A stretch of 64,000 nucleotides of DNA from IMG/VR virus record IMGVR_UViG_3300045988_149282, positions 1 through 64,000 of that record, one strand, 5' to 3'. Of the stretch, positions 37,201 to 40,200 are shown one piece after another. The DNA comes from a virus (taxonomy: Duplodnaviria > Heunggongvirae > Uroviricota > Caudoviricetes). Each line of letters begins with the position of its first letter. Position 1 is the stretch's first letter. Below the pieces are notes generated by a model. That model was not told where the DNA came from. It worked only from the letters and a program-made list of their open reading frames with translations, and did no database searches. The translations under genes were made by a program, and so were the position numbers.

Positions 37201-40200
37201 TATCGGAAATCGCACCACATCGTTGGAAAACGGGTTATCGACAGCTCAAAACAACATTGCCAAGAAGGCTGATGCTTCTGCATTGCAGGATCTCCGGAAC
37301 ACGGTGACATCTCAGGGTGATGATTTAACCGCGGCGAACAGCAGCATTACCAGCCTGCATGCCTCGATGAACCGTCGCACTGTGTTTACTGTCACTGCAC
37401 GGGGTAATGGCAACAGCGTTACCCATGGGGTGTTTGATGAAAGCGGCAAGAATCTGTTTACCCCTGGTCGCAGCTGGGCGCTGGTCACTTTTGCAAAACA
37501 CAGCGACGGATCAACGGTGATTGCGACCTCCAAAACATACGATGTCTTTGGCAGCGCGAATAATGGCGCCACGATGTCGGCTGATATCGAGGCACTGGCC
37601 AGTGGGACTTACGTTTGCGTCCTGACATTCGATGAGCCAACTGGCAACCGAGGTAAGGTGTTGTCTGCCCTGGAATCTCTTGGTGGCACTTCCGAAGTCG
37701 TTAACTCTCTGCCGTATCGTGGCGCCTACATTCTCCTTGGCCGCAAAGGTATGAAGCCGGGCGATGGTCTGGAACTGCGTGCGCCAACCGGTGGCGACGG
37801 CACCGCCCACATTTCGACCTCAGTCGAGTTTGTGAACGGGGTAATGATGGGGCTGGGCGCCGCTGGTGGTGTGATGATGAAGGCTGATGCGAACGCATCT
37901 GCAATTACCACGCTCCAGAATACAGTGAAGACCCAAGGGGATAATATTGACTCCCTGAGCTCCTCGACAACAGCGCTGGAAAACAGCCTTGCGTCCAGTA
38001 ACGCCAGCGTGGATGCAGCAAGCCAGATCCCCGGTAACCTGATCGTAAACCCGTCTTTTGAGCGTGGTACGGAGGGCTACACTGGTTGGAGCGGTATTGC
38101 CACGGTGGCAACGCTGCAGGTTCCACATCTTGGCACCAAAGCCGCCAAACTAGCGGCGGGTGGTTCTGCAGGCGTGGGCCAGAAGATCTCCTTCAAAAAG
38201 GATCGGTCGTACAAAATTGGTATTTGGGCAAAGCAGGACCCTAATACCACCATTCAGTCGACCGACAACACAAAATTCCGTGTGGCTGACGGTACTGGCC
38301 TGATTGCAAGTAAGGTTTATGGTCCGTTCACCTCGAACTGGCAGGAGGTGTCATGGACATGGAAGGCGACAAAGGATGTCCTTGCTGACGTTCAGTTCAC
38401 TGCTTTCTTGTCAGCCGGCGCGATGTACTTTGATGATTTTTACGTCGTCGATGTGACCGACTCAGTTGAAACTCAGGCGAACTCGAGTGCGATCACGAAG
38501 CTCGATAGTCGTGTGACCAAGACAGAGAATGACATCACCAGCCAGGGCAGCCAGGTTACGCAACTTAAGAATGACCTTGCTACCACAAACACAAATGTTT
38601 CGAAGAAAGCGGATGCAGCTGCGTTAACGGCATTAACGAACCGCGTCACGCAGAATGAGAAAGAAATTGGAACCCAGAGCAGCCAGACAACTTCGCTCAA
38701 AAACTCTTTGAGCACTGTTCAGGCAATGGGAAGCAACCCGTGGTTTGATGGTTCTCTGGAGACGTACTCCGAAAACCAGCAGATCAGCGGCTCGCGCGCG
38801 GTCGTCGTCAGCTCTCAGAAACGAAGCGGAACGAAGTCGTTGCGTGTTTCCCGCGGCGCCGGTGAGGGCGGAAACAGCGATAAAACCATCGGTAAGTGGA
38901 TTGCTCTGCGTGAAAATGCGGTATTCCGCATTGAACTCTGGGCGATGATGCCGGCAGATCAGTCGCCATCATCCGGGTGGTCAACGCTCGTTGGTTTGCA
39001 GACCCAAAACGCTGCCAACAACAATAACTGGCCGACGGCAATCACTATCAATGAAGCCGCATTGGGTGCAAGAGGCGCATGGAAGAAATTCACCGGTACG
39101 CTCCGTGTAGCCGCTGGCCACACTCGCGGCGCATTTTGGGTATCTACCCGCGGCACAACTGGCACTGGTACACCGGGGTATGATCTGTATATCGATGACG
39201 TTGTTGTCACCGATATCACCGACGCAAAAGAGGCTCAAGATTCGGCTAATTCGAACGCATCCGCGCTCACCAGCCTTACCTCACGTGTTACCAATGTAGA
39301 AGGGCAGGTGACATCCCAGGCGTCTCAGCTGTCCTCTTTGACGTCCCAGGTGAATGATGCGTCTTCGAAGGTTGATCAGATGGCGCAAACCATCACCAAC
39401 AACGAGAAAACGCAGTCGTCGCTGAATACCAGCTTGCAGTCGCAAATTGATGCGCAGGCATCGGCAAACATCAAGAACCAGACGGAGTTGAATAACGCCA
39501 CCACTTCGATGGCGGCAATTAAATCAACTCAGCAGACTCAGGCCACAACGATTAGTGCACTGTCTCAGCAGCAAACGAATTTAACGGCCCAGGTAGGAGG
39601 CCAGTCAGCCGAGCTGCAGGAGCTGAAGAAAACGGTTGTTGAAAACGGCAACGTTAACAGCACCTGGATGGTCAAAATGGAAACCAACAGCAACGGTAAA
39701 AAGTATGCTGCTGGTATAGCTTTAGGTATCGATGGCAAAAATTTGCAGAGCCAGTTTCTGGTTCAGACTGATCGCTTCGGCTTAATCAACACCTCTAACG
39801 GGAATACGACTACACCTTTCGTTATCGAAAATGGCGTTGCGTATATTAATGCCGCTGTCATTAAAGATGGCTCGATCACCAATGCGAAAATTGGAGGCGA
39901 AATCCGTTCTGACAATTTCGTTAATGGTTCAAATGGCTGGAGAATTGGAAAAGACGGTAGTTCACAGTTCAACAATGCGATATTCAGAGGTCATATTGAA
40001 GCGCGCAGTGGTACGTTCAAAGGAACCCTGGAAGCTCAAAACTTTATTGGTGATATCGCTGTAGCTCGGCGTTATGCGGGTTTATCGTTCCGTCGTAACA
40101 ACACCGTACAGCGTGATGGTCGTTACCAGAACCGCGGATACGGTATGACTATTGTGCTAAGTTGCACCCTGATATATCAGGTTACTGGGGGGAATGAGGA

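Follow-up and report, generated by a model that had tools for sequence, protein, structure and literature searches.

Domains of the GG type, which have the ILEI/PANDER/FAM3 fold, have been known in phage tail proteins since 2006, examples being T4 gp35 and the CBM_1 module of the streptococcal phage Tal protein; the link between gp35 and the GG domain was reportedly made by Guo et al. in 2006. In a cryo-EM preprint, the ILEI/PANDER-like domain of T4 gp35 belongs to the kneecap, which sits between proximal and distal rod, and a sugar-binding role is not reported for it there (bioRxiv 10.64898/2026.03.06.709160). The Tal extensions of streptococcal phages carry a POMGnT1-stem-like CBM with conserved Arg/Asp binding residues, for which an orientation away from the trimer axis was predicted, and this CBM_1 was read as a binder of host cell-wall polysaccharide (PMC9437275). 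Among eukaryotic proteins, carbohydrate binding has been demonstrated for the POMGnT1 stem, FAM3A/C and Fam3L2, and the GG domains of the POMGnT1 stem and FAM3A/C bind beta-GlcNAc and mannose (PMC9802357). Two papers that cite Kuwabara 2016 describe residues R129/D179/R207 of POMGnT1 as contacting beta-linked GlcNAc directly and mention GlcNAc binding by FAM3A/C as well (PMC9802357; PMC9437275).

The locus presented here lies in a stretch of 64,000 nucleotides (the window) from IMG/VR record IMGVR_UViG_3300045988_149282, a virus that is an SSU5-like Klebsiella phage-plasmid. The features discussed below are collected in Table 1. The giant fibre gene likely starts at ATG 28298, judging from the annotation of the related element pJN2-26. 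Its 4054-aa product carries the Pfam domains FNIII-A_GpJ (aa 103-237, E=6e-31) and Phage-tail_3 (aa 359-521, E=7e-32) near the N-terminus and Phage_Tail_Tip (aa 3778-3908) near the C-terminus, and matches PHROG 31, 'central tail fiber J'. It is 96-98% identical to pJN226_0075 of pJN2-26, which is encoded downstream of the tail genes M/L/K/I, and differs from it only in module M7 and in the C-terminal tip. The N-terminal domains, the C-terminal tip domain and a gene order as in pJN2-26 are all those of a gpJ-type protein. The protein is not a lambda J equivalog because its score against NCBIfam lambda_TipJ, 525, falls far under the full-length cutoff of 1950. Along this central tail fibre are strung about 11 globular modules, which are swappable.

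Table 1. Coordinates of the giant fibre gene, of the segment under study and of its surroundings in the window
Feature	Position	Strand	Basis or remark
Giant gpJ-like central tail fibre / tip attachment protein gene	28292-40456	+	ORF list, translation; 4054 codons counted from TTG 28292
Upstream module M8, 161 aa	36644-37126	+	Module boundaries; without Pfam family
Upstream 80-aa helical linker	37127-37366	+	Two repeat units, ~44-aa spacing
172-aa segment under study, in frame	37367-37882	+	Exact peptide, residues 3026-3197 of ORF 28292-40456
Predicted folded GG-type lectin (ILEI/FAM3-fold) core, segment residues ~3-160	37373-37846	+	Pfam, AF2, Foldseek, profile
Arg35 of segment (aa 3060), aligned with POMGnT1 Arg129	37469-37471	+	R in 111/115 homologues
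Asp89-Glu90-Pro91 (aa 3114-3116), Asp89 aligned with POMGnT1 Asp179	37631-37639	+	Profile alignment
Arg118 (aa 3143) in YRGAYILLGRKG motif, aligned with POMGnT1 Arg207	37718-37720	+	R in 103/115 homologues
Downstream 48-aa helical linker, one repeat unit	37883-38026	+	Linker sequence, model
Downstream module M10, CBM_4_9 domain	38027-38461	+	Pfam PF02018, E=1.2e-9, 39 bits vs cutoff 25.9
C-terminal Phage_Tail_Tip (lambda J C-terminal) domain of giant fibre	39623-40015	+	Pfam PF09327, E=5e-41

The initial annotation, which had flagged one non-CBM insert at 37366-37881, gave the peptide exactly; the position is one base off, in a frame full of stop codons. In the correct frame, the segment stands between two helical linkers. 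When a stretch of 300 aa comprising linker, GG domain and linker was modelled, the upstream linker formed one long predicted helix (residues 4-81), the downstream linker another (residues 249-299), and the GG core kept its high confidence. The last ~12 residues of the segment (GLGAAGGVMMK) are modelled with low confidence and are linker-like. Since the DNA repeats within the linkers are only 60-72% alike, we make no claim on precise recombination sites. Of the surrounding modules, M2, M3, M5, M10 and M11 are CBM_4_9 domains above the Pfam threshold and M6 lies slightly under this cutoff; M8 has no Pfam match above threshold and no PDB match by sequence.

The identity of the segment was approached by sequence and by structure. 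Taken in isolation, it matches Pfam PF15711 (ILEI) with 42.1 bits (gathering score 27; E=1.3e-10), and within the whole fibre protein with 36.7 bits. A family profile built from 40 diverse homologues and searched against PDB sequences retrieved all GG/FAM3-fold proteins with solved structures, namely FAM3B (3.6e-11), the POMGnT1 stem (3.5e-8) and TMEM2 (1.7e-7) as well as FAM3A and FAM3C, with E-values from 3.6e-11 to 4.7e-7 over the whole set, and nothing outside GG/FAM3-fold proteins at E<0.5. The AF2 model of the domain has a pLDDT of 94.2 and a pTM of 0.90. All 21 significant Foldseek matches of this model in the PDB are FAM3A/B/C, the POMGnT1 stem or TMEM2 (TM 0.53-0.75), the next match after these GG-fold proteins appearing at E=0.44. 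In a search of viral structures, many phage tail and receptor-binding proteins share the fold of the model, among them Bacillus phage G gp431 (TM 0.82) and T4-like gp35 (TM about 0.58-0.63). According to profile and predicted structure, the 172-aa segment is thus assigned as a GG-type lectin domain. A single-sequence PDB search had returned an arabinanase with a marginal E=0.003, FAM3 appearing there at E about 0.5-0.7; this match was rejected because the family profile and the fold search both point solely to GG-fold proteins. In NCBIfam, a match to GTA_spike_fiber remained below threshold (17 bits where 36 are required) and was disregarded.

Alignment of the family profile with the 5ggj sequence of POMGnT1 places three residues of the phage domain opposite the sugar-contacting triad of that enzyme's stem. 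Besides the two arginines, the central motif is strongly retained in phage homologues, with D in 112/115, E in 107/115 and P in 103/115. R35/D89/R118 most likely represent a candidate sugar-binding triad; these residues, conserved throughout the family, could also be partly structural.

The behaviour of the cassette was followed in 55 IMG/VR contigs. The module found upstream of the GG domain is M8, M7, M10, M4, M2, M1 or the J N-terminus, and the one downstream is M10, M2, M11, another GG or the J C-terminus; two GG copies occur in three contigs (L040, L054 and L058). Because neighbours and copy number differ across these viral contigs, their comparison is taken as evidence that the GG domain behaves as an autonomous, shufflable module. 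In a 1685-aa relative of the fibre (P0028), it is the only globular insert recognised by Pfam. Near-identical cassettes (95-100%) are found in the same giant gpJ-like gene of Klebsiella phages and prophages, and near-identical fragments carry the NCBI label 'interleukin-like EMT inducer domain-containing protein'. An alignment-based scan of cellular genome contigs returned one locus, in Pluralibacter gergoviae, and a single-protein scan of such contigs gave no match. In the Klebsiella phage 48ST307, the GG domain would form the C-terminus of the fibre, the ORF ending in junk residues inside the next CBM; since the record looks frameshifted or truncated, it was left unused as evidence for a distal position.

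We propose, with a probability of roughly 0.65, that the GG domain is an accessory adhesin of the fibre shaft which binds glycans, its target being a Klebsiella surface sugar. The self-contained cassette is inserted in the shaft between two alpha-helical linker units, here taken as coiled-coil. The gpJ protein of phage lambda is a trimer, and if the giant fibre were trimeric too, three copies of the module would be displayed at each node of the shaft. Each would bind capsule, O-antigen or another surface polysaccharide, presumably at a site made up of the conserved Arg35/Asp89/Arg118 triad. Acting alongside the CBM_4_9 and remaining modules, the GG domain could then provide weak, multivalent and reversible adsorption, and the phage would stay at the cell surface until the receptor has been engaged by the J tip domain at the C-terminus.

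Several other explanations must be weighed against this proposal, beginning with the nature of the segment itself. Its place in a periodic array of modules is the only argument for a diverged copy of the adjacent CBM_4_9 jelly-rolls or for a disordered linker. The segment had been said to lack the N-terminal N-L-x-x-N-x-x-F-E and C-terminal D-D-V-x-V signatures of its neighbours, and a regular expression search bears this out, motifs of these types being present in neighbouring modules and absent here. In an all-against-all BLASTP of the 11 globular modules, it matches no other better than E=1.6, whereas the CBM-like modules match each other at 1e-20 to 1e-27. PF02018 gives no match to it at E<=1 in Pfam, and CBM structures are absent from the significant Foldseek PDB matches of the model, a confident mixed alpha/beta fold with three helices (pLDDT 94). 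We therefore give next to no credence to either a diverged copy or a disordered linker, and the suggestion of an independent domain, unrelated to the flanking CBM_4_9 units, is upheld. The epithet 'non-CBM' is correct as to family; as to function, the domain is most likely another carbohydrate-binding module. The initial annotation had also envisaged an enzymatic or different binding domain and proposed a search for the folds of depolymerases, esterases or lectins. Such a search yielded a lectin fold, that of GG/ILEI/FAM3 as in the POMGnT1 stem, and because of this homology the binding alternative is supported. GG domains do co-occur with enzymes, in CEMIP/TMEM2, POMGnT1 and an SGNH-esterase phage protein, as would suit a depolymerase, esterase or similar activity degrading surface polysaccharide. 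In POMGnT1 and CEMIP/TMEM2, catalytic activity resides in domains other than GG. The enzymatic alternative is very improbable here: no catalytic family or fold was matched in Pfam, NCBIfam, PHROGs or the PDB, and specifically no beta-helix pectate-lyase-like, SGNH or sialidase fold was found in the segment by Pfam, PHROGs, NCBIfam or Foldseek against the PDB.

The two remaining alternatives accept the fold and dispute its role or its ligand. The domain might serve as a structural joint, spacer or protein-protein docking module devoid of sugar binding, as suggested by the fold it shares with the T4-like gp35 hinge connectors, by the placement of the T4 counterpart in the kneecap joint (bioRxiv 10.64898/2026.03.06.709160) and by the fairly fixed position that many variants give it in the C-terminal third of the fibre. 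We consider this unlikely for three reasons. Among viral structures, tail fibre or receptor-binding proteins match the fold better than gp35 does; phage homologues almost always retain the sugar triad of POMGnT1; and the GG domain occupies the same type of slot as true CBM_4_9 modules, with neighbours, order and copy number free to vary. This shared slot type and free variation are easier to reconcile with a binding module that is autonomous than with one particular joint. Alternatively, the lectin could recognise non-bacterial glycans, such as beta-GlcNAc mucin glycans of the gut or airways, and thereby keep the virion in its niche. The beta-GlcNAc and mannose binding of the POMGnT1 stem and FAM3A/C and the clinical and animal-associated Klebsiella sources of related phages agree with such a role, which appears decidedly unlikely to us: the domain sits on the central fibre beside the receptor-binding tip, where binding to the host surface is the simpler assumption, and its streptococcal phage homologue was interpreted as binding a cell-wall polysaccharide of the host (PMC9437275).

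With this assignment, a previously unexplained insert becomes a defined module, probably a lectin, for which three candidate binding residues can be named. It also shows that two or more carbohydrate-binding folds, unrelated to each other, are mixed in the giant central fibre as cassettes that can be interchanged. Such knowledge may be of use for mapping host-range determinants of Klebsiella phage-plasmids and for tail fibre engineering. A broader conception, in which the giant gpJ fibre is a combinatorial glycan-reading array whose GG, CBM_4_9 and as yet unassigned modules are swapped among unrelated Klebsiella temperate phages, seems doubtful at present; were it true, the GG cassette would be a specific determinant of the capsule or O-antigen types to which these phages adsorb. 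The temperate phages in question are SSU5-like phage-plasmids of ~110 kb and elements of ~45-57 kb. Resistance genes can be carried by relatives of these elements. There is also a possibility that the large, strongly conserved phage GG clade, with its intact Arg/Asp/Arg, lies near the origin of the GG domains of eukaryotes (FAM3, POMGnT1, CEMIP/TMEM2). As phage tail proteins with GG/ILEI domains had been described before, the finding, though real, is an ordinary one: automated annotation already names Klebsiella proteins as ILEI-domain proteins, and neither a new kind of domain nor a new mechanism is involved.

Comparison with described systems delimits what is particular to this locus. The POMGnT1 stem (PDB 5GGJ/5GGF) has the same fold (Foldseek TM 0.62-0.75; profile E=3.5e-8), a similar size of about 155-160 residues and, in R129/D179/R207, the equivalents of R35/D89/R118. 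However, the identity is only about 15-17%, and the POMGnT1 domain belongs to a glycosyltransferase of the Golgi, the phage domain lying between the helical linkers of a fibre. Unlike POMGnT1, the phage family also has strongly conserved motifs of its own, RSY, YDVFG, DEP, YRGAYILLGRKG, GxGxE and FxNG. The FAM3A/B/C proteins (PANDER, ILEI; PF15711) include the best PDB sequence match, FAM3B at 3.6e-11, and resemble the model with TM 0.6-0.69; they are small secreted eukaryotic signalling proteins, whereas the phage domain is a module inside a virion protein of 4054 aa. FAM3 proteins are stabilised by conserved disulfides, and the phage GG domain has a single Cys. Among phages, T4 gp35 is likewise a tail-fibre component that carries a GG domain of the ILEI/PANDER-like kind. 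With about 370 aa, gp35 is a small protein in its own right, located at the fibre joint, where it connects the proximal and distal half-fibres, and composed of tower-like, ILEI-like and CBM-like domains. Only the ILEI-like fold is shared with the present domain, which is internal to a gpJ-like polypeptide and flanked by helical linkers. The Tal CBM_1 of TP-778L and 9851 (PMC9437275) offers a GG module in a siphophage tail-tip extension with several linker-separated CBMs, a likeness drawn from the published description of Tal. That protein is gp21-like and belongs to phages of a Gram-positive host, whereas the fibre described here is a gpJ; the Tal linkers are collagen-like or made of 3-beta domains, and those of the giant fibre are helical repeats of ~44 aa. 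Finally, in pJN2-26 and its near-identical Klebsiella relatives, the arrangement of cassettes differs from phage to phage.

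The 172-aa peptide singled out in the initial annotation of the giant fibre is encoded exactly as described, with its limits shifted one base downstream (37367-37882 in frame; translation from the original limits, 37366-37881, is full of stops), and corresponds to residues 3026-3197 of the open reading frame on the plus strand. It belongs to Pfam family PF15711 (ILEI, 'interleukin-like EMT inducer'), also named GG domain or FAM3/PANDER fold, with a score of 42.1 bits (E=1.3e-10) for a gathering score of 27. An exhaustive HMMER search through 1.8 billion cluster representatives returned 412 relatives at E<=1e-3, of which 103 at E<=1e-10; many align over nearly all 172 residues within proteins of 1000-7000 residues, and at least 23 of the best 150 carry a gpJ-type N-terminus. 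Searched against PDB sequences, a profile based on 40 divergent examples of the domain matched FAM3B (3.6e-11), FAM3A, FAM3C, the POMGnT1 stem (3.5e-8) and TMEM2 (1.7e-7), and nothing else under E=0.5. The AlphaFold2 model computed from the same alignment is confident (mean pLDDT 94.2, pTM 0.90), residues ~3-160 being ordered and the C-terminal GLGAAGGVMMK ill-defined. Foldseek against the PDB gave 21 significant matches, every one to TMEM2, FAM3A/B/C or the POMGnT1 stem (TM 0.53-0.75), and the first match outside GG-fold proteins appeared at E=0.44. The segment is almost certainly a GG-type (ILEI/FAM3-fold) domain. In every comparison run for family membership (sequence match, predicted fold and conserved residues), it falls with GG/ILEI proteins, and it falls outside CBM_4_9, the gp35-type kneecap proteins and the depolymerases.

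The signatures N-L-x-x-N-x-x-F-E and D-D-V-x-V, reported for the neighbouring modules and said to be missing from the segment, are distributed in this manner by regular expression search. The CBM_4_9 modules of the fibre match one another at 1e-20 to 1e-27 in BLASTP, whereas the segment has no similarity to the other ten modules (best E 1.6). Because it forms a separate fold and does not resemble its flanking modules, it is neither a disordered linker nor a homologue of the CBM-like units. Of the two roles initially envisaged, an enzyme or a different binding domain such as a lectin, Pfam, profile and fold searches point to the latter.

A candidate sugar site can be proposed by analogy. In the POMGnT1 stem, Arg129, Asp179 and Arg207 are described as contacting beta-linked GlcNAc directly; the same residues are reported to be kept in FAM3 proteins, with in vitro GlcNAc binding by FAM3A and FAM3C (PMC9802357; PMC9437275; both citing Kuwabara et al. 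2016). The stem sequence, checked against PDB 5GGJ (100% identity over 153 residues) and aligned to the phage-family profile, places these residues, spaced by 50 and 28 positions as expected, opposite Arg35, Asp89 and Arg118 of the segment. Among 115 homologous domain copies, the three are conserved in 111, 112 and 103, respectively, and rank with D59, G106, Y121, G125 and E136 among the most conserved positions. From the shared fold, they would cluster on an exposed face.

The protein containing this domain matches PHROG 31 ('central tail fiber J') and shows the features typical of lambda gpJ-like central fibres. In the fibre region, pJN2-26, vB_Kpn_1825-KPC53 and similar ~110-kb Klebsiella phages share 95-96% identity with the window; SSU5-like and possessing ParA-type partition genes, they are phage-plasmids. 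In pJN2-26 the tape measure gene is followed by the tail tip genes M, L, K and I and then by the fibre gene, whose sole annotation is 'putative tail fiber protein'. ATG 28298 is the likely start of the giant gene, since the annotated start in the near-identical pJN2-26 agrees; it is preceded by AAGGGAAG, and numbering from it moves residues by two relative to the TTG. The two fibre genes are colinear (97.6% and 95.7% identity) except for the M7 region (35798-36524) and the last ~480 nt (39976-40456), the latter encoding the extreme C-terminus of the fibre, probably its receptor-binding tip. Both look like localised replacements. The giant gene differs in composition from the rest of the element, G+C content being 56% in the GG cassette, 52% in the gene and 47% in the window. 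Since a separate tail fibre gene adjoins it, the phage probably has side fibres besides the decorated central one.

Features of the giant fibre gene and its surroundings
Feature	Position	Strand	Remarks
Giant gpJ-like ORF	28292-40456	+	4054 codons, starting TTG 28292
FNIII-A_GpJ	residues 103-237 of fibre protein		Pfam
Phage-tail_3	residues 359-521 of fibre protein		Pfam
Phage_Tail_Tip	residues 3778-3908 of fibre protein		Pfam
Module M1	31421-31858		no Pfam family above threshold
Module M4	33722-34135		no Pfam family above threshold; weak Cadherin-like match; marginal PDB match to N-terminal part of sialidase (E=0.02)
Module M7	35912-36370		no Pfam family above threshold
Module M8	36644-37126		no Pfam family above threshold; no PDB sequence match
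Separate 479-aa tail fibre protein	40513-41952		directly downstream of giant gene; PHROG 1980, E=1e-100

Between the gpJ-type ends, eleven globular modules (M1-M11) were delimited over 31421-39223, joined by Ser/Thr-rich linkers with a repeat unit spacing of ~44 residues; the GG segment is the ninth of these modules. CBM_4_9 is above the Pfam threshold in M2, M3, M5, M10 and M11 and slightly under it in M6; M4 is probably the 'first non-CBM insert' of the fibre. A second structure model, of a monomer comprising the segment with 80 upstream and 48 downstream linker residues, shows a GG core with pLDDT 82-95 between two long predicted helices (residues 4-81 and 249-299). Since a monomer was modelled, the low confidence of these helices is unsurprising if they form a coiled coil. 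Relatives at 30-40% identity have like linkers on both sides of the domain.

The cassette occurs in 55 IMG/VR viral contigs (L004-L058) of two size classes, ~110 kb and ~45-57 kb, among which module order, number and identity vary widely. On its N-terminal side the GG module has M8, M7, M10, M4, M2, M1 or the J N-terminal region itself, and on its C-terminal side M10, M2, M11, another GG or the J C-terminal region; three contigs (L040, L054, L058) carry two copies. In the 1685-residue homologue P0028, GG is the sole Pfam-recognised globular insert between coiled coil and tail-tip domain. Given these varying neighbours and copy numbers and its occurrence as sole insert, we take GG to be an autonomous cassette occupying the same type of slot as the CBM_4_9 modules. 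The spread of the varying arrays over both size classes suggests that distinct lineages of Klebsiella temperate phages have exchanged cassettes. The same cassette lies in the annotated 3193-aa tail fibre ORF of Klebsiella phage 48ST307 (KY271402, 883-10464), a different phage type judging from its phiKO2-like ParA/ParB annotation. This ORF stops 126 residues past GG, barely inside the next CBM-like module, and its final ~20 residues resemble out-of-frame sequence, probably reflecting a frameshift or truncation in the record. Close homologues in public databases (P0001-P0013) are mostly partial proteins on contigs < ~1 kb; short-read assemblies may be interrupted at the repetitive linkers and, if so, complete genes for fibres of this kind would be under-represented. 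Other homologues with many GG copies (P0103, P0029, P0031 and others) do not appear phage-like; P0103 (2034 aa), for instance, combines 13 matched GG stretches with EF-hand, RTX and Big_9 domains and could be an adhesin secreted by a bacterium.

If this fibre is trimeric, as lambda gpJ is, three copies of each module would surround the helical core at every shaft node. Most economically, the GG module would act as an accessory lectin gripping a Klebsiella envelope sugar through its Arg/Asp/Arg site; acting jointly with the remaining carbohydrate-binding modules, it would make adsorption multivalent and reversible before the C-terminal J domain engages its receptor, a reading to which we assign a probability of about 0.6-0.65. 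A structural role fits less well: the kneecap protein gp35 of T4 has an ILEI/PANDER-like domain at a fibre joint (cryo-EM preprint) and its homologues are among the viral structural matches of the segment, but tail-fibre and receptor-binding proteins from phages of Bacillus, Acinetobacter and Dickeya match better, and free shuffling is more in keeping with a binding module than with a dedicated joint. The domain may instead bind non-bacterial glycans such as mucins. The enzymatic role initially considered finds no support in Pfam, PHROGs, NCBIfam or the fold search.

The whole fibre is of more interest than the segment: in its shuffled array, two or more unrelated carbohydrate-binding folds stand beside four modules without family assignment, and different classes of Klebsiella temperate elements have the array in common. 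A GG/ILEI domain in a phage tail protein is unsurprising to the specialist, and automated annotation in effect made the same call, Klebsiella protein fragments 95-98% identical being named 'interleukin-like EMT inducer domain-containing protein' at NCBI. According to PMC3742443, Guo et al. defined the GG domain in 2006 in FAM3, KIAA1199, POMGnT1 and phage gp35 proteins. In streptococcal phages, a CBM resembling the POMGnT1 stem, its Arg and Asp conserved, is reported from Tal extensions that carry several CBMs (PMC9437275). Compared with the eukaryotic members, the segment shares an identity of only about 15-17%, possesses a single cysteine and sits inside a virion fibre.
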